NCBI GenBank assembly: GCA_963701295.1
Contig: OY969585.1
Span: 2,144,001-2,208,000, forward strand
Origin: Ignavibacteriota bacterium
Lineage (GTDB): Bacteria; Bacteroidota; Ignavibacteria; UBA10030
DNA length: 64,000 nt
Direction: 5' to 3'
Made by a program: the position numbers and the translations under genes. The stretch's first letter is position 1; each line of letters begins with the position of its first letter. The notes below the pieces were generated by a model. It saw nothing but the letters and a program-made list of their open reading frames with translations, was not told where the DNA came from and searched no databases. Shown here in pieces: positions 40,304-62,038 of the stretch.

Positions 40304-40695
40304 GGTACCAACTTGGCACCTTAAAGAGAGGCGAACATTCCAAATACCTCCCATTTGCTTTTACAGAGCAAGGTATTGCGATGCTTTCCGGTGTATTAGG
40401 CAGTCCACGCGCCGTACAAGTAAATATTGCGATCATGAGATCGTTTGTAAAATTACGGCAGGTATTAGCGACGCACAAAGATCTAGTACGGAAGCTGGAA
40501 GAAATGGAAAAGAAATACGACGCACAATTTCAGATAGTTTTTGATGCGATCAGGCAGGTTCTTGCTCCTCCTGAAAAACCCAGACGCGAGATCGGATTTC
40601 GGGTAAAAGAACCTATTGTACGATACAAAACGAGAAAGAACCAAAAAATGATGATTCGACCACCCCAGTCCTGCGGACTTCCCCTCCTCACTTGA
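40300..40695 (+). pseudogene. 5'-truncated ORF6N-type DNA-binding protein
   Basis: In-frame [47 protein letters not shown]; N-terminus absent. Confidence 0.85.
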
Positions 40696-40808
40696 GGAGG
40701 GGTGTAGGGGTGGTGACTTTACTGCAATGAGTTCTTGCCCTCCCATAGTAAAACAAGTATATTTAAGGTAAGAAAAATCCCGCACCAGCCGTAATTACCA
40801 CAGGGGAT
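40656..40808 (+). repeat. Direct repeat copy 1 (palindrome + promoter + 42-nt conserved block)
   Basis: CCCCTCCTCA-CT-TGAGGAGGGG, TTGCCC-N17-TATATT; aligns with 41255-41399. Confidence 0.9.
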
Positions 40809-40858: not shown

Positions 40859-41230
40859 ATGGGAATTATTTATAATCGTCCGAGACAAAAGCGATTACGA
40901 CAACATCTGAGAAACACTGCATCTGAAGCGGAGCGGCTGCTTTGGAGTTCATTAAAGGGGAGCCAAATGCTAGGATATAAATTTCGCAGTCAGCAAGGTA
41001 TCGAACAATATGTTGTAGATTTTTATTGTCCCGCAAAAAAAGTTGCTATCGAGATTGATGGAGAGACACATTGGACTGATCAGGAACAAAAAAGAGACCG
41101 TGAGAGGCAATGCTATATCGAAGCATTGGGTATTCGGGTACTGAGATTTACAAATGACGATGTTTATACAAATAAAGACGGTGTATTGAATACGATCTTT
41201 GCAGTCTTAGAAGGACAAGAAGAGGAATGA
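40859..41230 (+). CDS. DUF559/Vsr-like endonuclease-domain protein
   Basis: LRN..SEAERLLW, YKFRSQ..I..YVVDFYC, IEIDGETH, GIRVLRFTN. Confidence 0.92.
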   Translation: MGIIYNRPRQKRLRQHLRNTASEAERLLWSSLKGSQMLGYKFRSQQGIEQYVVDFYCPAKKVAIEIDGETHWTDQEQKRDRERQCYIEALGIRVLRFTNDDVYTNKDGVLNTIFAVLEGQEEE

Positions 41231-41254: not shown

Positions 41255-41399
41255 TCGACCACCCCTTTCTCCCCTCCTCATATGAGGAGGGGTGTGGGGG
41301 TGGTGGCTTCAGCGAAAAACATCTCTTGCCCTCCGATGCGGAATATGATATATTTATGGTAAGAAAAATCCCGAACCAGCCATAATTACCACAGGGGAT
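41255..41399 (+). repeat. Direct repeat copy 2
   Basis: CCCCTCCTCA-TA-TGAGGAGGGG, TTGCCC-N17-TATATT; 40/42 identity of the 3' block with copy 1. Confidence 0.9.
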
Positions 41400-42256: not shown

Positions 42257-43654
42257 ATGGAAAAAATAACCTCACCTGCACCACGAATAATAATTGATCA
42301 TTTTGCTGAAGAAATTAAGAAAAGAAAGATTCCAACGGGACCAAAACCTTCAATAGCCGTTATTGATTTCCGGAATTGGAAGCGAGATGGAATTGAACGC
42401 CCGATAGAATTAGTGCCTTTGGAGTTATTAAGGTACAGAAAAGACAATGGTCGTATTGCATCTGATGTTATGGATTATGAAAGAAATCATGGTCGGTTGA
42501 AAGAAGAATCCAAAGAAGCACAAGAAATTATCAAAAAGTTTCTTCTCGAAAGGGACGAAAAGAAAACAGATGAATTAACGAAGAGCATACAACATGCAGG
42601 ACAAGATCAGCCTGCCATAATCACTTGCGATGGATTCCTCATAAATGGAAATAGAAGGAAAATGGTTTTGGAGTTTCTTCATAGCAAATATCCGCAAGAT
42701 GACAGATTTGTTACAATGAAAGTCGTGATTCTCCCGGGAAAGGATGATGAAGGCGGATCACCGACGCTTTACGATATTGAAAGGATTGAAAATCGCTATC
42801 AATTACAAAGCGATGGAAAGGCTGAATATTTTAATTTTGATAAGGCTTTGTCTATCAGAAGAAAAATTGAAATTGGAATGACTATCAAGGAACAAATTCT
42901 CGACGATCCAAAGTATATAAATATTTCTGACAAAGAATTAAAAGAAGCGATAAAGGATGTTGAACAGGAATATCTTAAACCGCTGGAATGTATTGATAGA
43001 TATTTAAGTTATCTAAAGAGAGAGGGGTTATATTCGACTATATCAGCAGGAATAAGCGATAGAGAAGGGCGCTGGTATGCCTTTTGTGACTATAGTAAAT
43101 TTTGGGAACAATTAAATGATGAATCTAAGCGAATTAATAAATTCAAAATAAAAGAAAAAGAAATAGGAAAAATAGAAGATGCCGCCTTCAAAATTATTAG
43201 AAAAAGAGAACTGAAGGATCTACCCAAAGTGCATCAAATAATGAGAAATTTTTCTAAATATATATCTCATGAAGATTCGAAAAAGGAATTACTAAGACTA
43301 AATGAAATAGAATTAGAATTACCAAAGAAGGAAAGGTTTGATAAAGAGGGCAAGGAATACGACGAAAGAGAAATTGATAGAAGATGGGGCGCAAAACATG
43401 AAACGGTAATAACAAGACAAGTTAAAATAGCTGATCAATTATATAACCGTAATCGAGATATAGGGGCTCCAATAGCTATCCTAGAAGCAGCGCTAGATAA
43501 ACTTAACCATGATGTTCTTGAAGATCCAGACATAGGAATCGACGACATTAGCAAAGCATTAAAATTGGCAATTCAAATTCGTGAGCGCGCACATGAACTA
43601 GAACAAAATTTTTATTCAATCAAGAAAAAACTAGACAACTTAGGGAAGAAGTAG
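42257..43654 (+). CDS. ParB/Srx-like N-domain protein
   Basis: VPLELLRYRKDNGRI, SIQHAGQDQPAIITCDGFLINGNRR (ParB-type GxxR); helical C-terminus. Confidence 0.7.
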   Translation: MEKITSPAPRIIIDHFAEEIKKRKIPTGPKPSIAVIDFRNWKRDGIERPIELVPLELLRYRKDNGRIASDVMDYERNHGRLKEESKEAQEIIKKFLLERDEKKTDELTKSIQHAGQDQPAIITCDGFLINGNRRKMVLEFLHSKYPQDDRFVTMKVVILPGKDDEGGSPTLYDIERIENRYQLQSDGKAEYFNFDKALSIRRKIEIGMTIKEQILDDPKYINISDKELKEAIKDVEQEYLKPLECIDRYLSYLKREGLYSTISAGISDREGRWYAFCDYSKFWEQLNDESKRINKFKIKEKEIGKIEDAAFKIIRKRELKDLPKVHQIMRNFSKYISHEDSKKELLRLNEIELELPKKERFDKEGKEYDEREIDRRWGAKHETVITRQVKIADQLYNRNRDIGAPIAILEAALDKLNHDVLEDPDIGIDDISKALKLAIQIRERAHELEQNFYSIKKKLDNLGKK

Positions 43655-43674
43655 TACTTCGACAGAGAGAAACG

Positions 43675-45567
43675 ATGCTAATCGATACACTGGAAAACGA
43701 GATATTAATTCATCTAGAAAATACCTCCTTGAAAACTTATCAGCTAAGTCAGCTCCAATTCTGGAAATTTACTAGCGAGGATATTAATAAAATATTAAGA
43801 TCGCGAACAGACAATGTTGAACTACTGCTTATTAAACTGATAGAATATTTTGAAGAGGAAAAGATTGTTTATGAATTATCTCAAATGTGCCAATCAATTG
43901 TTGAGAACAGAAAACAAGTTGTCGACGATATTAGAAATATCAAGGAAACAAGTTCTACTTTCAAAGAAGGTAAGTACGATAATGAAGATTTTGGCCAATT
44001 TGCTGCATTCATCAAGAGAAGCATACATCGGAAGTTACGTGATCACCAAATAAAAGCTGCTTATCATCTTTATATTAGCAGGAATGCTGCTAACTTTTCT
44101 GTCCCAGGAAGTGGAAAGACTTCTGTAGTCATCACGGTATACGAAAAATTACGATTAGAGGGCAAAGTAAATTTACTTTTAGTTATTGGTCCACCATCAT
44201 GTTTTGGACCTTGGAAGACGGAGTTTTATCAAACATTGGAACGTGACTCAAAAGCTCGAATATTATCTGGAAGCCAGCCTACCGACAGAAAAAATGAATA
44301 CTACAAGAGAGTTGAGGATCGAGGTGAACTCTATTTAACGACATTCCAAACTCTTTTGAATGATCAGGAAGACGTTATTACCTTTCTAAATAATAGGGAT
44401 GTTAAGGCTTTCTTGGTAGTAGATGAAGCACACTATATTAAACAGTTAAATGGTAATTGGGCACAATCTGTCTTGAAGACGTCAAAATATGCAACCTATC
44501 GTTGCGTTTTGACTGGTACTCCTACTCCTAAAAGTTTTTCTGATATCTTTAATTTGTTTGATTTCCTATGGAGTAATCCTCAAGTATTGACATCTGAGAG
44601 TAAAATAAAAATTCAACTCCACGAAAAAAGAAATGAATACGAAAAAGCAAAAGTCATACTGAAGAATGAAATTGGACCATTGTTTTATAGGGTTCGAAAG
44701 AGAGATTTAGGATTACTCCCACCTGTTTTCCATACACCTCAAATCGTTATAATGAATAGATATGAACAAATCATTTACAGAGCAATCGAAAATAAAATCA
44801 TAAACTTTGCCAAAGATGATTATTTAAAAAATATTGATCTAGTTACAAAACTCCGTCGTGGAAGGATTATGCGGTTAAGGCAATGTAGTTCCTATGCAAA
44901 GTTGATATCAAGTGCTATAGAGAACTATGATGAAACTATTATAGATGATTCAGAACTAGGCATCAATAATTGTGAATTACGATAATCTAGAGAAACCATC
45001 AAAATTAATAGCTCTAGAAAAACTTGTGAGATCTTTGAATGTCCAATCGCAAAAAGTATTGATCTGGTCGAATTTTGTTGGAAGTCTTGAAATGATTAAG
45101 AAATATTTAATAACTAATGGTATGAACTGTGAAATTATCTATGGAAAAACTCCGATAGAAAGCACTACAATTGACGATGAAAATACACGAGAGGCTATAA
45201 GGGATAGATTTGTAGATCCCAAAAGTGGTTTAGACATACTTATTGCCAATCCAGCTGCTTGTGCGGAGTCTATCTCATTACATAAGACATGTTTCATGCC
45301 ATCTACTATGATTTATCTTACAATTGTGCACAATATTTGCAATCTATGGATAGAATACATCGTATCGGTGGTTCCGAAATAAATATAGCAAATTATCACT
45401 TTCTCCAATATGCAAATACAATTGATGCCGATATAAAACATAATTTAGATCAGAAGGCAGAGAGAATGTATAACCTTATCGAAGAAGATTATGCTATCTA
45501 TTCTCTCAACATGTTTGAAGAAGACGATAGCGAAATTCAAGCATATAAAAGATTATTTGGAAATTAA
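43675..45567 (+). CDS. SNF2-family helicase, split by two compensating frameshifts
   Basis: LRDHQ, SVPGSGKT, DEAH, LTGTP; KVLIWSNF, AESISLH, QSMDRIHRIG across ORFs 43675/44972/45289. Confidence 0.85.
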
Positions 45568-46514
45568 TGCCACAAAATTTTGATAATATTTCTTTCACAC
45601 AGCTATGTAGCCTAATTAATATTCTAGGCAGTACAAATAGTTCAGATATTGATTTCATTAAATCTAAATACTTTGATGTTGCAAGGGATTATGACGCTAC
45701 AGTTGAATTCCTTACTAACCTTTCTTTGGTTACGCAAAGAGATGATCAGATAACAATATCTCCTGAATTGAAATCGCTTTTCAAAGAAAAGAATAAGACA
45801 GATATTGTGAGAAACCTTCTGTTGCAGAAATTGATTAAACGGAATTCTCCATATAGAGAAGAATTACTGCGGTTTTTTAGATTATTTGAATTAAGAGGAA
45901 ATGACTGGGCTTGCACGCCAACAAAAGAGCAAAGACTCAAATACAGTGGAATTAGGAATCTATTGATAGATATGGATTGCATCGAACACGATTCCAAATC
46001 TGGCCAATATTTATTCCTATCTACAACAATATTGTTATTTGAAGAGTTACTTGATTCTTTTGCTATTTCGCGTAAAGAATTCTCTAAACTCCTTGAGAAA
46101 CGCGAAGAGTTGGGTAGAGAAGCGGAGTTGAGGATAATTGAATATGAGAAGCAAAGACTATTAGGTTGTCCAAACCTTATCAGTAAGATTAAACACTTGG
46201 CAGATATTAATGTGGGAGCAGGGTTTGATATTTTGAGTTTTGAAGGTGTGGATTCGGCCCAACCTGAAATGGAAAGATTAATAGAGGTTAAAGCTGTTTC
46301 TAAGTTTTCTTTCAAGTTTTTTTGGTCAGTAAATGAAGTGAATAAAGCAAAAGAAACAGGTAATAACTATTACCTATATTTATTGCCAGTAGAATCAAAA
46401 ATAGGATTTGATATAGACAAACTTCAAATTATACAAAATCCATTTTTAGAAATATTTAATAATTCCACAAAGTGGGCACAATCCTGTGAAAGCTTTTGCT
46501 TTAGACTAATCTAG
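45567..46514 (+). CDS. DUF3883 (PD-(D/E)xK-type nuclease) domain protein
   Basis: GREAE..EYE, GAGFDILSF, RLIEVK, FFWSVNE, YYLY; TAATG coupling to the helicase. Confidence 0.85.
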   Translation: MPQNFDNISFTQLCSLINILGSTNSSDIDFIKSKYFDVARDYDATVEFLTNLSLVTQRDDQITISPELKSLFKEKNKTDIVRNLLLQKLIKRNSPYREELLRFFRLFELRGNDWACTPTKEQRLKYSGIRNLLIDMDCIEHDSKSGQYLFLSTTILLFEELLDSFAISRKEFSKLLEKREELGREAELRIIEYEKQRLLGCPNLISKIKHLADINVGAGFDILSFEGVDSAQPEMERLIEVKAVSKFSFKFFWSVNEVNKAKETGNNYYLYLLPVESKIGFDIDKLQIIQNPFLEIFNNSTKWAQSCESFCFRLI

Positions 46515-46523
46515 AGAGAATTA

Positions 46524-47453
46524 TTGCTAATGACATCTAAAGAAAAAAAAAATAAGGGACACAAACTAAAACCCCCTTTTGGCTATTTCGGTTCAAAGCA
46601 AAGATTAGCGATTCATCTTTGTGCGAACTTACCACCGCACAATGCATGGGTTGAAGCCTTTTGTGGATCAGCTTCTTTGACTCTTGCAAAAATCCCAGCA
46701 CCAATAGAAGTCATTAACGATTTAGACAAAGAAATCATAAACCTTTTTCGTCAATTAAGAGAGAACCATGGAAATTTATGTAGAATGGTTGAACTTACTC
46801 CGTATGCAAGGGAAGAGTTGAACATTGCCCGAACAAAAGGAAAGAAAATTAACGATCTAGAACGAGCACGGCGTTTCCTTGTTTCTGCTATGATGGCGAT
46901 CAACGGAGTTTTTGGAGAAGAACGAGGGGGCTTTTCATACTCTGATTCATACTCCCGACATGGTAATGATGCTCGTGTCAATAGATGGTATAACTTGTCA
47001 AATAGAATTTCTGAGGTTGTTGAAAGATTGCGCGGTGTGAGGATTGAGAATAAGGACGCTCGACAATTGCTTAAGCAGTATATTGATAGACCCGGTACGT
47101 TAGTATACCTAGATCCTCCATATCTTGCGGAGAGAACTAATGGGTATAATAGAGATGCAAATAATATCGAGTTCCACAAAGAACTTCTAGACATTGCAAA
47201 TGAAGCTAAATGTATGATTTTCATAAGCGGCTATGATAATGAACTTTACAAAAAAATGCTTACCAAAGACAATGGATGGTCAACTAAGAGAATTAAAACA
47301 ATCACGAAAGATTCAAGTGGACAAAGTCACAAACGGACGGAAGTTGTTTGGATGAATAAACACTTTAGGAAAGCACAAAAATCAAAACATGTACCAATGA
47401 GACTGTCTGAAAAGGAACGAAAATCAAATAAAATTAATCCATCTAGAGAATGA
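46524..47453 (+). CDS. Dam-like (D12 class) N6-adenine DNA methyltransferase
   Basis: YFGSK, EAFCGS, EVIND, YLDPPY, ISGY, TEVVWMN; likely start ATG 46530. Confidence 0.93.
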   Translation: MLMTSKEKKNKGHKLKPPFGYFGSKQRLAIHLCANLPPHNAWVEAFCGSASLTLAKIPAPIEVINDLDKEIINLFRQLRENHGNLCRMVELTPYAREELNIARTKGKKINDLERARRFLVSAMMAINGVFGEERGGFSYSDSYSRHGNDARVNRWYNLSNRISEVVERLRGVRIENKDARQLLKQYIDRPGTLVYLDPPYLAERTNGYNRDANNIEFHKELLDIANEAKCMIFISGYDNELYKKMLTKDNGWSTKRIKTITKDSSGQSHKRTEVVWMNKHFRKAQKSKHVPMRLSEKERKSNKINPSRE

Positions 47454-54033: not shown

Positions 54034-54102
54034 CATTGGCCCCGTAGCTCAGTGGATAGAGCAACAGCCTTCTAAGCTGTGGGTCGCGTGTTCGAGTCAC
54101 GC
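54034..54102 (+). repeat. attL: tRNA-Arg copy lacking its 3' 8 nt
   Basis: Identical to 61842-61910, then continues AAAACACT instead of CGGGGTCA. Confidence 0.95.
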
Positions 54103-54182
54103 AAAACACTACGATTTTCTGCATGTCCTTCCTTACTGGGTACTAATTTTGGGACTCCCTGCCTCAGAAAGCGAGGCTTCCG

Positions 54183-55253
54183 ATGTTCCTCTACAAGCAT
54201 TCCAACGGTGTTTATTATCTGTATTTTAAGAACGAGCAAGGCAAAAGACAAAAAGTCTCTACTCGTTGCACATACAAAGCCGATGCAATGAATTTCTTGC
54301 AGTCCTTCAAAAGGGACGAATACGAGAGAAGGCAGAAAGCAAAACATAAGCTTCTATCTGAATTCCTCATTGCTTTTCTTTCCTATGCTGAAGGAAGCTT
54401 CTCTGAGGGCACTGTAGCAATCTACAAGGCAACACTCAAGAACTTCATCGAATACATCGGAGACTTTCCGCTTGCCAATTACACGCCTCAGCATTTTGAT
54501 ATTTACAAAACTGAGAGACAAAAGCCTGTCAAAGTGGTTACGGTTAAAGATGGTCACACAACAGAGAAGGAGAAGATTGTCAAGCCGGTAACTGTCAACA
54601 TTGAACTCCGAGCGCTGAGGGCTTTCTTCAATACAGCCGTCCGGTGGAAGCTCCTCGAAAGTAATCCATTCAAAATCCAACTTGTGAAGGTACCGGAGAA
54701 TAAACCGACTTTCATCACAAAGCAAGAGTTTCAAAAACTGCTCAATGTGATAGAGGAACATTGGTTGAAGGAAGTGATAATTTTTGCCGTCAGTACCGGA
54801 TTGCGGAGAGGTGAATTAGTGAACCTGAAATGGGAAAGTGTTGACCTCAGCCGGAAGTTGCTCTACGTTGAAAGCACTCCGACGTTTCGCACGAAAGCCG
54901 GAAGAATGAGAATCATTCCATTGAATGATACTGCTCTCTACCTTCTGCAATCAAGGCAAGGTAAAGATACGTCGAGCTATGTTTTCACATTGAGTGGAAA
55001 GCTGTTGTTTGCCGATTGGATTACTCACTTATTCAAGCGATATGTGCGAAAGGCAAACCTCAGCAATCAGAGCATACATTTCCATTCACTCCGGCACTCT
55101 TTTGCTTCTTGGCTTGCTCAGGACGGCACTTCTGTTTATGTGATTAAAGACCTACTTGGTCACTCGGACGTGAAAACAACGCAGATATACAGCCATTTAC
55201 AGCCGGAGAGCTTGCATGCTGAGGTGAATAAGATTTCGGTATCTATGAATTGA
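54183..55253 (+). CDS. Tyrosine integrase
   Basis: STGLRRGE, TKAG, HSLRHSFAS, LLGHSD, TQIY. Confidence 0.97.
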   Translation: MFLYKHSNGVYYLYFKNEQGKRQKVSTRCTYKADAMNFLQSFKRDEYERRQKAKHKLLSEFLIAFLSYAEGSFSEGTVAIYKATLKNFIEYIGDFPLANYTPQHFDIYKTERQKPVKVVTVKDGHTTEKEKIVKPVTVNIELRALRAFFNTAVRWKLLESNPFKIQLVKVPENKPTFITKQEFQKLLNVIEEHWLKEVIIFAVSTGLRRGELVNLKWESVDLSRKLLYVESTPTFRTKAGRMRIIPLNDTALYLLQSRQGKDTSSYVFTLSGKLLFADWITHLFKRYVRKANLSNQSIHFHSLRHSFASWLAQDGTSVYVIKDLLGHSDVKTTQIYSHLQPESLHAEVNKISVSMN

Positions 55254-55350
55254 GGAATTGGTTATACTTAAATTTGAATCTTTTGATATAATTAAGTAGA
55301 ATCAATTGAGGCAAAACAATCCATGCGACCGTTATCACAAAGGATGAAAT

Positions 55351-55947
55351 ATGAAAAAGAAAAATAGAATAATTCTAATAGTCATCGCATCAATGATTGT
55401 TTTTCTGTTTTTTATTAAGACAAACCAGATTGCAGGCTTTATCCTTTTTGATAAGACTTATGCTCAAATAGCTGGTTCGAATATGCTGCAAGTCTATGGA
55501 GAAACACCGATTGCCAATAGACCAGTTTATGTTATCTCAATTAATCCTTTTACAATGTTTGATATAGATATTCTTAATGATTACTTTCTTCAGCGAATGG
55601 TTGTTCACAATGATGAATTGAGCATTGAACTTAAATTGATTAAATCAATTGATAAAAATTCACTTCACCGTCTTGATAGTATTGATGCTATTGCCTCAAA
55701 ATCCTTAGATGCTCTAATGAATCATTGGTGCACATATTCAACTCGGACGGATGTAAATGGACATTTCTCCGTCTCTGTTCCTGCAGGAAAATATCTTATT
55801 CTTGCTGTAGTGCCGAGTAAGAGGTTAAGTACTAAAACAGAACCAATTGGTGAGCTTGTATATGATTCAAAATGGGTATTTGCTTTCCAAAATTCATCAA
55901 AAGAGTTCTTGATTCATCCATTAGAATTGATTCATACAATAAGATAA
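55351..55947 (+). CDS. Membrane-anchored cargo protein, hypothetical
   Basis: Basic N-terminus plus TM helix; C-terminal TRTDVNGHFSVSVPAGKY beta-sandwich-like motif. Confidence 0.75.
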   Translation: MKKKNRIILIVIASMIVFLFFIKTNQIAGFILFDKTYAQIAGSNMLQVYGETPIANRPVYVISINPFTMFDIDILNDYFLQRMVVHNDELSIELKLIKSIDKNSLHRLDSIDAIASKSLDALMNHWCTYSTRTDVNGHFSVSVPAGKYLILAVVPSKRLSTKTEPIGELVYDSKWVFAFQNSSKEFLIHPLELIHTIR

Positions 55948-56021
55948 AAATAGGTTGTCATCTTACAAGTTCATCTTGGCTGTTATCCATTAAGCATGCA
56001 TGAATTATGTGTGGAGTTTAG

Positions 56022-56846
56022 ATGAAATCAATACGTCCTTTTATCTTCCTTTTAGCATCCCTCATGCTAATATCATTTGTTACTGCTCAAGATTTTCGCA
56101 GTGTTAAATGGGGAATGACTCGACAACAAGTTATGGAAAAAGAAACAGAATGCAAACCCATTGAATCATTACTCGAAAATGCAATTGCATTTAGATGCGA
56201 AACTGGCAACAGTTCTCTTTATTCGTCCTTAGAGATTTATTATTTTTTTGATAATTACGCTGTGGATAGTATAACAACTACCTTTGGTTTACAAAGTATC
56301 CTTCTTAACTACAATGATGCCACACAGAAACTTTTTGGAGGAATGAAACAATTACGCTCAGCGGAGTGTGGCAATCCAATAAAACGAAACGACAGTTATT
56401 ATTGGAGAAGCAAAGATAAAAAGTATGTTGTTGAATTATCCTATGACCGGAACAAACATTGTATATCTGAAACCATAGCCGAACCGAACTGGGTTTTTGT
56501 GAAAGATATTGATTTCTCAAAAAAACCAAAAGAACAATCTGATTCTCCAGAATGGCAGACCACTCAAACGTTCAGTGGCAAATCAATGGAAACAACAGAC
56601 GACTTTTCTATCAAAAGCAAAAAATGGAGAATAAATTGGACTGTGGTTCCTGTAAACGATGAAATGGCATCGCTCTTCTTTGGCGCCCTACTAGTCAATA
56701 ATGAAGGGCACTCAGAAGTGATTGGAAACGTGATGAATGAAGACAATGGAACTTCGGTTTTTAGAGAACAGGGAACTTATTATTTAAAAATTACAGCATC
56801 AAATGCAAATTGGGAAATCGAAATTCAAGAATATTTAAAAAAATAA
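56022..56846 (+). CDS. Secreted two-domain cargo protein, hypothetical
   Basis: GGAG RBS, signal peptide ..VTA/QD, FRSVKWGMT, beta-rich C-domain. Confidence 0.8.
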   Translation: MKSIRPFIFLLASLMLISFVTAQDFRSVKWGMTRQQVMEKETECKPIESLLENAIAFRCETGNSSLYSSLEIYYFFDNYAVDSITTTFGLQSILLNYNDATQKLFGGMKQLRSAECGNPIKRNDSYYWRSKDKKYVVELSYDRNKHCISETIAEPNWVFVKDIDFSKKPKEQSDSPEWQTTQTFSGKSMETTDDFSIKSKKWRINWTVVPVNDEMASLFFGALLVNNEGHSEVIGNVMNEDNGTSVFREQGTYYLKITASNANWEIEIQEYLKK

Positions 56847-56970
56847 ATTAGATAGCATAGCTAAGCAGGCGCTAAAGATGATAACCTGAGTTTTAAATTT
56901 TTTCCGTTAGGAATTCGCCAACACAAAAAAGGTATTTGCTTCTCTTTAGTGAGAAGGGAGGTTTTATAAA

Positions 56971-57108
56971 ATGGAAACTTTCTTTGTTGTAATCTTCTTC
57001 ATTGGACTGATTGCGGCGGCGATTAGAAGTTATGGTGCGAAAGATGGCACAGACGGCTATAGTGGTAATGACGACGAATTTCATGATGAATTTAATGATT
57101 TTGAATAA
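56971..57108 (+). CDS. 45-aa single-TM protein with acidic tail (not in the ORF track)
   Basis: AAGGGAGGT RBS; METFFVVIFFIGLIAAAIRSYGAKDGTDGYSGNDDEFHDEFNDFE. Confidence 0.65.
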   Translation: METFFVVIFFIGLIAAAIRSYGAKDGTDGYSGNDDEFHDEFNDFE

Positions 57109-57262
57109 CTTCATTTGTTGATTTATTAGTTTGGTTATGACATATTTTTGAGAAGCCGTCCCTTCTCAAACGGACATTCACCGTAAGGTGAAAAATATAA
57201 AATCCATTGTTGGCAGTGGACGGACTGCTGACAGTGGATTTTATGTTGTATGAGGTGATGGT

Positions 57263-58267
57263 GTGTATTCGCGATTAGACAAAGCGGATTTAGAGCATGC
57301 AAGAGAACTTGAACGAACCAGAATGGAACAATTACGGAAACTCGAACGAGAAAGAGTGCACGAGATAGGGAAACTTAAACGTAAAAGGAAAGTTGGAGGA
57401 CTACAGGAAGGTGAACAACAAACATTAGAGTTGTTGAAGTATGATAAAATTTCACTACAACCGTCTAAACTCTGGTATCCTTTTGGAACTATACATACAC
57501 TGAAAGATTTTTTAAGGAGATGCACAAAAAACGAACGACAAATATTCAAAATGATATTGCAAGACATCAATGAGTTAACACCGAAGAGATTGTCACAGGA
57601 GAAGGAACTAACTCTTTTGAACCTTTTACATGGCATAATAAATCTTTTGGAATGTGGAAATGTTAAAGGCATAACGGAGACGGAAGAAAGATACAATCAG
57701 AAACTAAAACTCTACCAAAAAGATATACGTGATAACGAATTATTTCCGCTTGCTCGTAACATTTATAAAATTAGAAATGATAATGCATGTAAACTTGAAT
57801 CATTCATTATCCGGCGGGAAGGTGCTGCACGCGCTTATGCAAAGAAATATTTTAAAAAACATAGAAAAGAACTTGAACAAGAATACAATGATAAATTCAA
57901 CAAGGATATAGCAAAAAGCAAATACAAAAAACGCTGGAAGGAATACATAATCCATGAAGTATTTGGAAAGATAATGAGTAATGGAATCAAAATACCAAGA
58001 AATGAATTGAGACTTCCCAAAGATGGAAGACTTTACAGACATAACAATCGACTTTATATAAGGAAAAATACACCTGAAGTGGAAAAGATTTCATTGGAAA
58101 AAGAACTTTCAAATATTAAGAGAATAAAGCTTTTCGATGCTATGGTAGAGGCTAATAAACAACATAGGATATTTCCCAAAAAAGAATTTGAACAAGACAA
58201 AAAAAAGATTTTCGACAGACTTAAACATTTCCACGGGAAGCACAAAAGCCGTATGAAATTAATTTAG
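57263..58267 (+). CDS. Basic helical hypothetical protein
   Basis: GAGGTG RBS, 334-aa Lys/Arg/Glu-rich ORF followed by a hairpin. Confidence 0.75.
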   Translation: MYSRLDKADLEHARELERTRMEQLRKLERERVHEIGKLKRKRKVGGLQEGEQQTLELLKYDKISLQPSKLWYPFGTIHTLKDFLRRCTKNERQIFKMILQDINELTPKRLSQEKELTLLNLLHGIINLLECGNVKGITETEERYNQKLKLYQKDIRDNELFPLARNIYKIRNDNACKLESFIIRREGAARAYAKKYFKKHRKELEQEYNDKFNKDIAKSKYKKRWKEYIIHEVFGKIMSNGIKIPRNELRLPKDGRLYRHNNRLYIRKNTPEVEKISLEKELSNIKRIKLFDAMVEANKQHRIFPKKEFEQDKKKIFDRLKHFHGKHKSRMKLI

Positions 58268-58292
58268 CACCTTCATAAATTTTCACTTCACA

Positions 58293-58335
58293 AAAGGCTT
58301 GCTTTCTTAAATGAGAGTGAGCCTTTCTCGTTTTT
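58293..58335 (+). terminator. Probable terminator
   Basis: AAAGGCTTGCTTTC/GAGAGTGAGCCTTT stem with a T-rich tail. Confidence 0.55.
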
Positions 58336-58461
58336 ATAAAACAAACTGCAAAAAGTGAAGTCTCTTCACCCAATTAGCTCTGATTATTATGGTATCTACA
58401 AATACTTCTTCATAAAATTCTATGTGAATAAAAGCTTAGACATAAATCGAATTGAATCAAG

Positions 58462-58502
58462 AAGCAGATTGGAGTTCCCTAAGCTCTCCAATCTGCTTTT
58501 TT
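58462..58502 (+). terminator. Terminator-like hairpin in the replication operon leader
   Basis: AAGCAGATTGGAG/CTCCAATCTGCTT perfect 13-bp stem plus T run. Confidence 0.7.
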
Positions 58503-58583
58503 ATTTGTTGCACTCGCAACAACAAAAAACGGGCTGTCAAGTTCGAGGCTTAGACAACCCGTCAAAATCCAGAAAGGATTTTT

Positions 58584-59003
58584 ATGCTACAATCAAATAT
58601 ACAAAGAATTATTCTCAGTCCAACAAAATTAAAAAGTGTTTGGACTGTTGAACTGCACCTTCCATTTGAAACGCGCTATGTTGGCAAGTTGGACAAAGCC
58701 GGAGAAGGAACATTTATCTGCAAGAGGAAAGAAAAACATCTTCACTGGAAGACTAATTCGCTTGGTGTCAATCTTGAACTGCTTCAACGTTTCGATTTCA
58801 GGTGGATTTGTATTGAGTATTGCGGTCGTAAGCTCTTTACTACAAAACTATACATTCTCCATCATGGTAAGGTGTTCACATTCGACAAATCCGGTTTTGA
58901 AACGCAAGCGTTTCTTCCGTTGGAGGCTTGGGGACAGGATAAAGCATTAGAATTTGAAAGGCATTTAAACAGTCAAGGTAACTTATTCAATGAGGCTGCC
59001 TAA
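58584..59003 (+). CDS. Hypothetical protein, first gene of the replication operon
   Basis: AAGGA RBS; TAATG coupling to the helicase. Confidence 0.75.
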   Translation: MLQSNIQRIILSPTKLKSVWTVELHLPFETRYVGKLDKAGEGTFICKRKEKHLHWKTNSLGVNLELLQRFDFRWICIEYCGRKLFTTKLYILHHGKVFTFDKSGFETQAFLPLEAWGQDKALEFERHLNSQGNLFNEAA

Positions 59004-60364
59004 TGATTACTACTATTGATGCTGAAAAGTTATTGGTAGCCGCTTGCTTGCAAGGCAGGAAATCAACCCTAATGATTGCAGATACATTGGGAGTCTGTGA
59101 AGATGACTTTAGCGATAAGCATCTCAGAATGATATTCGATGTATGCCAAGCTTTAGTCCTTCAACGAAAAGATGTTGATGCCCTTGCAGTTCAATCCTAT
59201 CTCCGGAATAGTGTTGATGAATTGTATTTCTCTGGTAAAGATAAACAGCAGGAACTTGAAGCGGTCGAATCCCTCTGCAAAGATGTCGCAACCGATTATC
59301 AATTCCTTAAACAACTCGCTTCTCCCTATACAGCTTGTCAATTTGTGAAGAAGGAAGCGCAACGCCGGAAAGTGATGGAGAAGATTTTCACACTATCGGA
59401 TAAACTGCAAAACGGAAGTGATGTTGAGGCAATCCTCAATATCGGTATATCGGACTTGCTTGCGATTTCGCATTCGATACAGAACTTGAATCAAAAGAAT
59501 TATCTCTCACTTGACGATGCAATCGTTGAAGCTGAAAGAGAAATCCAAGACGAACTCTCTGGAAAAGCGAACTGGCTATCTACCGGAATACCGGACGTTG
59601 ACAAATTGATACACGGACTCCACAATGAATGTTTATACATCATAGGAGCTGAGGCAAAGGTAGGAAAATCTTTGTTGAGCAATCAAATAGCACTTCATAA
59701 TGCAATCAAAGGCATTCCGGTCGGTATTGTTTCGATGGAAATGAGCGGACGCGAGATTGTGAAACGATATGCCGGAATATCTCACTGGGCAAGTCCACAA
59801 GATAAATTGCAATCTCTGGAAACATTCAAAGCACAAGCAAAAGGAAAGCCATTGTATTTCCGGCAAGGTGGAACTTCAACAAAATCCCTGTTCTCTATCC
59901 TTCAACAATTGGTCAATGATAGAAAATGCAAGCTTCTGATTTTGGATTATCTCCAGCTTATTCAGCTATCCGAAAAGAACCGGAACGCCGTTGATGAACT
60001 CAATTCTGTCTTAGCTGAATTGAAAAGCTTTGCAATTGAAAATCAGATACCGATTATTCTTGTGAGTGCTGTATTGACAAAGCAAGTCGCTGGAAAGAAT
60101 ATCAAGAAGCCCTCACGAGCCGATATAGTGGGAACTGGCAGAGCAATCAACGACTGTGATTGTATGTTGATGCTCTGGACACCGGAAGAGGAGAACCGAA
60201 AGTATATCGAAATCTTTGTAGAGCATGGACGCAATGGAGAAAATGGAAAAGCCGGTCTCTACCTCAACGATTCACTACAACTCGTACCAACAACTTTAAG
60301 AGAAGCTGAGGTAATACCATTGAAGGAATATAAGCCGAAATCTTCTTACGGCGGAAAGTGGTAG
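59003..60364 (+). CDS. Divergent DnaB-like replicative helicase
   Basis: IDAEK N-domain, STGIPDVD, Walker A GAEAKVGKS, SMEM, ILDYLQLI, RNG. Confidence 0.88.
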   Translation: MITTIDAEKLLVAACLQGRKSTLMIADTLGVCEDDFSDKHLRMIFDVCQALVLQRKDVDALAVQSYLRNSVDELYFSGKDKQQELEAVESLCKDVATDYQFLKQLASPYTACQFVKKEAQRRKVMEKIFTLSDKLQNGSDVEAILNIGISDLLAISHSIQNLNQKNYLSLDDAIVEAEREIQDELSGKANWLSTGIPDVDKLIHGLHNECLYIIGAEAKVGKSLLSNQIALHNAIKGIPVGIVSMEMSGREIVKRYAGISHWASPQDKLQSLETFKAQAKGKPLYFRQGGTSTKSLFSILQQLVNDRKCKLLILDYLQLIQLSEKNRNAVDELNSVLAELKSFAIENQIPIILVSAVLTKQVAGKNIKKPSRADIVGTGRAINDCDCMLMLWTPEEENRKYIEIFVEHGRNGENGKAGLYLNDSLQLVPTTLREAEVIPLKEYKPKSSYGGKW

Positions 60365-60371
60365 GCAGGCA

Positions 60372-60716
60372 ATGGCTTCTCCACAAGTTGAAAATGGCTA
60401 TACAAGAGTGTCTAATGAGCTATTAGAAGCGATTGTGAGAACGAAAATGAACGGGACGCAGTTCGCTATAGTCTTAGCTGTGATTAGAGCAACCTATGGC
60501 TTTCATAAGAAAAGTAGAGAATTAGGTCTTGCATTCTTTGCAGTAGCAACCGGACATAATAAGCGAAAAATCGGAATCGAACTTAATAAGCTAATCAATA
60601 GAAAGATTCTGATAATAGAAAAAGGGCATTGTCTTGGTCATAGTCGTGCATTGAGACTTAATAAAGATTATGAGAGCTGGATAAATTTTGATAGGTATGT
60701 ACCTAATGGGACATAG
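60372..60716 (+). CDS. Lambda-O-like replication initiator (N-terminal domain only)
   Basis: ENGYTRVSNELLEA, VIRATYGFHKK, LNKDYESW. Confidence 0.85.
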   Translation: MASPQVENGYTRVSNELLEAIVRTKMNGTQFAIVLAVIRATYGFHKKSRELGLAFFAVATGHNKRKIGIELNKLINRKILIIEKGHCLGHSRALRLNKDYESWINFDRYVPNGT

Positions 60717-60780
60717 GGTATGTACCAAAACGTAAAAAAGGTATGTACCAAATGGGACACTAAATAAAGAAATAAAGAAA
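60694..60780 (+). repeat. Iteron origin
   Basis: GGTATGTACC at 60694, 60717 and 60740 (23-bp period), then A-rich TAAATAAAGAAATAAAGAAA. Confidence 0.8.
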
Positions 60781-60800
60781 GCTTTAAAGAGATATTTAAT

Positions 60801-60980
60801 ATGAAGAATACATTACAAGTGATTGAAGAAGAAATTCTATTCATAGGTCAACAACTTAATGAAGAAGTCTTTGAGCAGTACACTTCAGGCGAAATCACAC
60901 TTCAGCAACTGGATGAAGCTTATCGAATCCTTTCAAAATGGTCACTTCAGAGCGAAAATGTGTTGAAGTTGCTGGAATAA
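60801..60980 (+). CDS. 59-aa acidic helical hypothetical protein (not in the ORF track)
   Basis: ATG 60801 to TAA 60980, MKNTLQVIEEEILF...VLKLLE; fills the gap between genes. Confidence 0.55.
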   Translation: MKNTLQVIEEEILFIGQQLNEEVFEQYTSGEITLQQLDEAYRILSKWSLQSENVLKLLE

Positions 60981-61027
60981 AAGTAATTAAAACCTTTACT
61001 ATTTAGGATAAACAGAAAGAGAGAATA

Positions 61028-61552
61028 ATGGGTGGTTTTGGTAGTGGTCGTTCCGGCTGGCGTCCGGTCGTTGAAGACGGATTGAAGCTTGATTCGTACC
61101 GATTGCAGAGACAAGGCTTATTGAGTATTCACGGCTGTGAACTTTCAATTGGTTCGCTTGAATGGACATATACTTCCTCTGGAGAGCATGTTGCTTCCAT
61201 CGGCTATTCCGTAAATTATGAGAACCAGACGATGATACTCACCTACACGAAGACAATTGATGGAGAAAAATATCCGGTCAACGAAACTATCTGGCTGATA
61301 AGGCAGAAAACTAATTTCGGAGGTTCCCGCTTTCTTTTTAAATGTCCAAGCTGTTACGCAAGGGTAGCAAAACTTTATCTACCTAATGGTGCGCTCCATT
61401 TTCGCTGTCGTGGGTGTTATAATCTTACATATCAAAGCAGTAATGATAGCCATGAGTTCGACTTTCTTTTTCGACAAATATCATCTGAAACGGGTATGTC
61501 TTTTGGAAATGCTAAAAAAATAATGAAGAACATGTGGTACGTACTAAAGTAG
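61028..61552 (+). CDS. Zn-finger hypothetical protein (MGGxGSGR start)
   Basis: FGGSRFLFKCPSC...FRCRGCYNLTYQS. Confidence 0.85.
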   Translation: MGGFGSGRSGWRPVVEDGLKLDSYRLQRQGLLSIHGCELSIGSLEWTYTSSGEHVASIGYSVNYENQTMILTYTKTIDGEKYPVNETIWLIRQKTNFGGSRFLFKCPSCYARVAKLYLPNGALHFRCRGCYNLTYQSSNDSHEFDFLFRQISSETGMSFGNAKKIMKNMWYVLK

Positions 61553-61599
61553 TGTTAAATAGTATTGAATGGCTATCGAAAATGATATTATGAAACGGG

Positions 61600-61628
61600 T
61601 TGCCTTCTCTGTAATTGTTTTGTAAATT
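61600..61628 (+). promoter_or_regulatory. Element-borne promoter facing the intact tRNA
   Basis: TTGCCT-N17-TAAATT. Confidence 0.45.
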
Positions 61629-61845
61629 GAAATAGAACTCAAAGAAATCCGCTTTCGGAAAATCAAGAAAGAATTTACTCGAAAGAGTAGAACGCCAAGA
61701 GTTCAGAGACCGGAAGCCTCGTTTCGCTTGGCGTTTCTTATTCGTGGCAGGTGGGGACTAAATTGGTAACCTTGTGAGTGAGATAGGAGCAAACATCTTA
61801 ATCATTCACAGAAGATAATTGTAGATTTTCGATTGTTTTTCCATT

Positions 61846-61918
61846 GGCCCCGTAGCTCAGTGGATAGAGCAACAGCCTTCTAAGCTGTGGGTCGCGTGTT
61901 CGAGTCACGCCGGGGTCA
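61846..61918 (+). tRNA. tRNA-Arg(TCT), intact, overlapping attR
   Basis: Acceptor GGCCCCG/CGGGGTC, anticodon arm ACAGC-CTTCTAA-GCTGT, T arm GCGTG-TTCGAGT-CACGC; no encoded CCA. Confidence 0.97.
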
Positions 61919-62038
61919 CGTACTTAATTCATTTTTCGATCCTCCATATAACTTTCAATGGTTTCTAATATTTCTCAATAAAAAATCCCATCTCTTGCAA
62001 AACAAAAGATGGGATATATATCTTGAAATACTTTTCTT

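Follow-up and report, generated by a model that had tools for sequence, protein, structure and literature searches.

A four-gene ParB, SNF2, nuclease and methyltransferase cassette from an Ignavibacteriota bacterium, apparently an unnamed AbiR-like variant

What is the four-gene cassette that an Ignavibacteriota bacterium carries in a 64,000-nucleotide stretch of contig OY969585.1 (assembly GCA_963701295.1, positions 2,144,001 to 2,208,000), and how might it act? This whole stretch is called the window below. A preliminary description, made from the letters of the window, had proposed an undescribed, restriction-like defence operon. In this study, we found that the four genes form a unit conserved across genomes. 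From gene content and homology, we class the cassette as an apparently unnamed AbiR-like variant that is distinct from AbiR proper without making up a category of its own. On balance, we favour the view that it is an AbiR-like anti-phage system licensed by methylation, with defence as the inferred role. The features, with lengths in amino acids (aa), are as follows.

42257..43654, + strand: ParB/Srx-fold protein (AbiRb-like), 465 aa
43675..45567, + strand: SNF2-family ATPase gene (AbiRc-like, without PLD), three open reading frame (ORF) pieces of 436, 136 and 92 aa
45567..46514, + strand: winged-helix plus DUF3883/NOV_C PD-(D/E)XK protein, the predicted nuclease effector, 315 aa
46524..47453, + strand: D12-class DNA adenine methyltransferase, 309 aa

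The genes are co-oriented and tightly packed, as had been described, with a 20 bp gap, a TAATG overlap and a 9 bp gap between them. The noted AT-richness was borne out by a GC content of 34.3% against 42.4% for the genome; only 0.5% of 3639 same-sized genome segments are as low. The motifs GNRR, PGSGKT, DEAH, GFDI/EVK and DPPY were all found in the cassette proteins. Promoter and terminator scans performed no better than chance level.

Is the association of these genes more than accidental? Linkage was counted in the best 80 of 149 confirmed GTDB loci (44-60% ParB identity), and the counts describe close relatives. The SNF2 gene lies directly after ParB in 77 of the 78 loci with room for it, the exception (L078) having an intervening transposase. 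The nuclease follows in 67 of 73 loci by script, plus one split copy (L076). In four loci of one Bacteroidota clade (L064, L067, L079 and L080) the nuclease is replaced by a PNP-fold nucleosidase encoded upstream of ParB, with the D12 methyltransferase kept; at L039 neither nuclease nor nucleosidase was seen. A methyltransferase adjoins in all 67 loci with room, belonging to the D12 class in 46 and the N6_N4 class in 21, and the two classes never occur together. The gene upstream of ParB is variable, and neither a conserved large ORF at that place nor conserved extra neighbours were found across the 80 loci. The four-gene linkage is not chance, and the restriction-like reading is supported. 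On a ParB tree of 71 sequences (quick IQ-TREE search; 9 loci without a methyltransferase call or a full ParB excluded), the methyltransferase class switches 8 times, at least 4 of them forced by well-supported branches; thus the methylase function has been kept while the enzyme was replaced. The tree intermixes 20 phylum labels, the cassette being spread over about 20 bacterial phyla.

Among close kin the cassette is rare. None of the 15 same-genus genomes had a full-length ParB match; among 60 relatives, one did (a same-family genome), and two more had weak matches. The G008 genome holds a fragmented, distant copy at another site. The flanking genes are shared genus-wide, and the stretch between them differs in every genome examined. 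On viral contigs, 35 pattern matches were obtained, of which 0 were confirmed, and no close relative was found there. This last result would suit a module of DNA repair or of mobile-element regulation with no role in conflict, as would the ParB and SNF2 folds, both of which serve in DNA maintenance. We regard such a role as improbable: the constant methyltransferase linkage, the effector swaps, the scatter over phyla and the absence in close kin fit conflict systems and not housekeeping. Other gene sets were also seen in these genomes. A same-order genome has a distantly related arrangement at L098:7588-12038, which encodes an HhH-GPD protein, a small sigma70_r4 protein, a ParB-like protein (405 aa) and an SNF2 protein, with no nuclease seen. 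Near the variable site, same-genus genomes have further genes that look defence-like: a set of three, the last of which encodes an AAA_23 ATPase (L093:6945-10629) and which we take by resemblance to be Lamassu-like, and a gene for a KAP NTPase (L095:3547-4935).

Which known system does the cassette resemble? Passages on AbiR in a 2026 review describe AbiRa as sigma70-like, AbiRb as ParB-like and superimposed on 5K5D, and AbiRc as an endonuclease plus SNF2 protein; the system lowers phage DNA replication, requires the LlaKR2I methylase and is toxic without it, and the joint working of its parts is described as unclear (PMC13064643). In AbiR, which is encoded on the Lactococcus lactis plasmid pKR223 (AbiRa/AbiRb/AbiRc with M.LlaKR2I), and in the cassette alike, the SNF2 gene comes after a ParB-like gene, and both systems include a nuclease domain and a DNA methylase. 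The structure 5K5D, used for the AbiRii superposition in the same review passages, is also the second Foldseek match of the cassette ParB. When metagenomes were scanned with a PLD-SNF2 protein of L. lactis, three loci (L111-L113; 98-99% identical) came up in which a sigma70_r4 protein, ParB, PLD-SNF2, a C5 methylase and a MutH-fold restriction endonuclease follow in this order. Since this is the gene set that the review passages give for AbiR with LlaKR2I (PMC13064643), these loci serve as AbiR-layout proxies. The window's ParB shares about 30% identity with theirs over 159 aa, and HHalign matched it to the AbiR-layout loci, proxies of which none is named AbiRb, at 99.6% over 360 columns (E 1.7e-23). 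The SNF2 family profile scored 261-311 bits, near full length, on six Firmicutes partners (again proxy sequences), with 311 bits on the L. lactis protein P0365 (positions 18-609); the named SNF2 models of PADLOC reached at most 102 bits on intact homologues, a rough comparison only, as the profiles differ. Over their full length, the ParB and SNF2 proteins of the cassette are homologous to those of the AbiR-layout loci L111-L118. The two systems differ in their nuclease, which in AbiR is a PLD domain fused to SNF2 and in the cassette a separate winged-helix/DUF3883 protein. They also differ in their methylase, which is D12 (or N6_N4) and inside the operon in the cassette, and in the AbiR layout a C5 enzyme shared with a restriction-modification (R-M) system. 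The cassette thereby loses the label "undescribed" in its strong sense, because its ParB/SNF2 core is homologous to AbiR-layout loci and AbiR is published. No account of the four-gene cassette was found in the full-text literature searched; it may still appear in subscription journals or in large supplementary tables that list predicted systems. PADLOC 2.0 gave no AbiR model match even on AbiR-like plasmid proteins, so that its silence on the cassette is uninformative. Elsewhere, a passage of PMC13712998 leaves unassigned a SAR11 pair resembling AbiRb and AbiRc without AbiRa, DefenseFinder includes AbiRc according to a passage of PMC12278908, and PMC11381338 mentions an AbiR-like system skipped in testing over cloning problems and, in a supplement entry, a lactococcal plasmid with AbiRi/AbiRii.

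The window's ParB matched 69 plasmid records, mostly from Firmicutes; a helicase gene is annotated next to ParB in four of the five records opened, and the fifth has a split one. These plasmid-borne distant relatives, the patchy distribution and the toxicity of AbiR without its methylase (PMC13064643, in the passages on AbiR) would all suit a selfish addiction module, in which the methylase would keep a toxic set of ParB, SNF2 and effector in check; the module would persist by killing cells that lose it and would give little protection from phages. AbiR, however, was discovered through its anti-phage effect, and defence-type genes (AbiEii, GmrSD, Mrr and type I R) adjoin some loci. We consider addiction as the main function rather unlikely, and addiction and defence are compatible and not exclusive. 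On plasmids of Lactococcus and Enterococcus (L081:1993-10007 and L085:2034-10006), the ParB-SNF2 pair stands directly after an R-M operon of type III, which adds another sort of methylase partner.

How might the ParB and SNF2 proteins work together? The 465-aa protein has no family match in Pfam, PADLOC or NCBIfam, and a sequence search of the PDB returned nothing useful for it or for the nuclease; the fold calls for both come from Foldseek only. Its AlphaFold2 model (predicted local distance difference test, pLDDT, 87) has as top matches Noc, the pNOB8-like ParB 5K5D and Spo0J (E 7e-3 to 7e-2), with Foldseek probabilities of 0.96-1.0 for the best four. The nearest named cluster in the ESM Atlas has ParB_N in 28% of members. 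Together with the HHalign result, the model and its matches uphold the earlier ParB-like call. The protein consists of a ParB domain with GNRR, a helical middle domain (the predicted SNF2 binder) and long C-terminal helices. Its relatives number at least 1526 among 7999 candidates scored, and 1592 clusters were counted at 50% identity. Weak N-terminal HNH matches occur in 4 of 21 distant relatives scanned: P0471, P0482, P0491 and P0511 have an extension of about 160 aa with an HNH_2 match (E 1e-3 to 9e-3), which could be a fused effector.

Complex prediction was run on the intact L022 pair, with full SNF2 and ParB residues 186-465. The pair scored 0.78 and the best control 0.00; the mark for such scores is reached by 116 of 157 solved pairs versus 2 of 215 mismatched ones and is roughly applicable here, own alignments having been used. 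Contact agreement between runs was at least 74% and the pLDDT of the partners at least 81. The core contacts (SNF2 Q26, K52 and Y56; ParB E299, G303, E306 and F310) are 83-98% conserved and are retained in the window's proteins. The ParB middle domain is thus predicted to dock on the N-terminal domain of SNF2.

Could the nuclease and the methyltransferase be the actual defence? The DUF3883 nuclease call agrees with a Pfam NOV_C match (E 1e-12), and the catalytic residues E187, D221, E240 and K242 are invariant in 55 of 55 aligned sequences. R.SwaI, Hjc and winged-helix proteins were weak Foldseek matches of its model (pLDDT 93), with E-values that all exceed 0.001. Two matches, to Pfam MethyltransfD12 (E 1e-18) and PADLOC MTase_II (E 4e-48), support the methyltransferase call, and the enzyme is the sole D12 match above the cut-off in the genome. 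"Dam-like" holds as a family label and not as a specificity: the enzyme resembles DpnM and T4 Dam only weakly, so that GATC is not shown to be its target. The ratio of GATC to expectation is 0.82 in the genome, 0.98 in D12 loci and 0.84 in N6_N4 loci. One N6_N4 enzyme has the N4-cytosine methylase M.PvuII as its best PDB match. A two-layered arrangement may be imagined, in which nuclease and methylase make up an ordinary, type II-like restriction pair, with ParB-SNF2 acting separately as a helper or back-up. The two genes are usually adjacent, and the nuclease has a winged-helix region of its own, which changes faster than any other part of the cassette (mean identity 23%). PD-T4-1, a single-gene system, has a related DUF3883 domain: its PADLOC model matches that of the cassette at E 6e-18, over 110 of 383 model positions. 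However, the constant pair is ParB-SNF2 and not nuclease-methylase, and the methylase persists at the four loci where the nucleosidase replaces the nuclease. The nucleases of L041 (D12) and L072 (N6_N4) also have 74% of the winged-helix region in common despite unrelated methylases. We therefore judge two separate layers unlikely.

The methylation-licensed, AbiR-like system that we favour, for which the patchy occurrence, the low GC content and the variable site also speak, would work as follows. The methyltransferase would mark host DNA as self. ParB would bind nucleotide at GNRR and load on DNA, SNF2 would translocate using ATP, and their predicted complex would trigger the nuclease on unmarked DNA, so that the nuclease would cut invading DNA or, failing that, the DNA of the host. 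ParB and SNF2 are probably the constant engine and the methylase the self mark, the effector being exchangeable. Because four nucleosidase loci keep the methylase without the nuclease, it is probably ParB/SNF2, rather than the nuclease, that does the sensing. That the cassette works like AbiR seems to us more likely than not. More tentatively, the ParB-type nucleotide clamp may itself be the sensor of self and non-self. It would load at unmethylated sites, recruit SNF2 through the dedicated interface and switch on interchangeable effectors (DUF3883 nuclease, PLD nuclease or nucleosidase), with m6A, probably m4C, or m5C all licensing the host; AbiR would then be one branch of a widely distributed restriction-like superfamily with no mechanism described so far.

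Several observations weigh against the AbiR-like, methylation-licensed scheme. Word counts and palindrome avoidance gave no clear target site of the methylase. Once relatedness is allowed for, no ParB, SNF2 or nuclease domain follows the methylase class (31 loci, p 0.16-0.96), so that none of them stands out as the site reader. The Foldseek E-values for the ParB fold are weak, none reaching 0.001. The complex was modelled on a homologous pair with the N-terminal domain of ParB omitted, and the whole interface is on average just slightly more conserved than its surroundings. The bridge to AbiR consists of the layout and of a match, at 98-99%, to an L. lactis protein that carries no name, and it includes no sequence named AbiR. 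At L117, no methylase was seen beside the sigma-like, ParB and SNF2 genes. Finally, the cassette lacks the sigma70-like AbiRa (about 820 aa) that heads the AbiR operon, having a 197-aa HNH-like ORF upstream instead, and its SNF2 lacks PLDc_2, the homologues being about 630 aa long compared with 850 aa with PLD.

Do other catalogued systems explain the cassette better? Zorya type I and DISARM class I have an SNF2 ATPase in common with it, and DISARM also has an adenine methylase. Their partner genes had been reported absent, and PADLOC indeed gave no DrmB, DrmC, ZorA or ZorB model match among 7 window proteins. DrmA, the remaining DISARM core protein, had no match among these 7 either; intact SNF2 homologues match it over a short helicase stretch only, and ZorD (at most 102 bits) and DrmD (at most 48 bits) as generic SNF2 proteins. 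Hma, type 1 BREX-related systems and the RL system of Gao likewise combine an SNF2 ATPase and a DUF3883 nuclease with a DNA methylase within a single operon. The four cassette genes, however, include neither a DUF499 ATPase nor a DUF1156 methylase, and HmaA models scored at most 31 bits on intact SNF2 homologues. The cassette SNF2 and nuclease are separate ORFs across loci and not an SNF2-DUF3883 fusion as in Hma and RL; such a fusion beside a DUF499 ATPase is described in a passage of PMC3710099. The main text of PMC12839542 on BREX-related systems, as far as available, has no mention of AbiR or DUF3883.

AbiR has been without a mechanism since 2000-2006, and a compact four-gene relative in about 20 phyla makes the question testable. 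The natural swaps of methylase and effector, together with the predicted ParB-SNF2 interface, offer handles on the AbiR mechanism, and the catalogue of common systems would gain one that PADLOC 2.0 leaves uncalled. What tempers the surprise is the familiarity of the parts and the frameshifted state of this copy as assembled.

Is the window's SNF2 gene intact? The SNF2 call is backed by Pfam SNF2-rel_dom (E 1e-18) and pieces of Helicase_C. Two single-base frameshifts break the gene, near 44962-44966 and 45289-45292. The three pieces together span an intact homologue end to end (50-79% identity), and all ATPase motifs are retained in spite of the breaks. In contigs of about 98% identity from three runs of three studies (X1, X5 and X6), an extra T at 45291 lets the second break read through; the first is spanned by no contig. 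A comparison with same-genus genes over 111 kb revealed 6 single-base indels in this assembly, located in 4 of the 95 genes compared. With indels this frequent, two of them within 1.9 kb would be improbable (about 0.5%), with the proviso that indels cluster (3 in one gene). At the protein level, frame switches were seen in 4 of 119 genes and internal stops in 8 more. By script count, 7 of 73 related loci also have a split SNF2 gene. We rate assembly error as somewhat likelier than decay; recent inactivation is a serious second candidate.

The neighbouring nucleases were confirmed as an upstream HNH-like gene and a DUF559 nuclease, with small accessory ORFs. The HNH gene had been put forward as a possible additional cutter and was rejected, since none of the 80 loci has an HNH homologue; a 93% identical copy of the 197-aa ORF occurs in the same-genus genome G014, which has no cassette. 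The DUF559 gene (40859-41230) lies between two repeat copies (40680-40808 and 41270-41399) that carry a CCCCTCCTCA...TGAGGAGGGG hairpin, presumably REP-like by resemblance, and a portion of the second copy is also present in genomes of the same genus. Further downstream, an integrated element of 7.8 kb (54034-61919) is framed by a direct repeat, perfect over 69 bp, that consists of tRNA-Arg(TCT) sequence. It encodes a tyrosine integrase (54183-55253), a DnaB-like helicase (59003-60364) and unknown ORFs, and looks like a satellite-type element.

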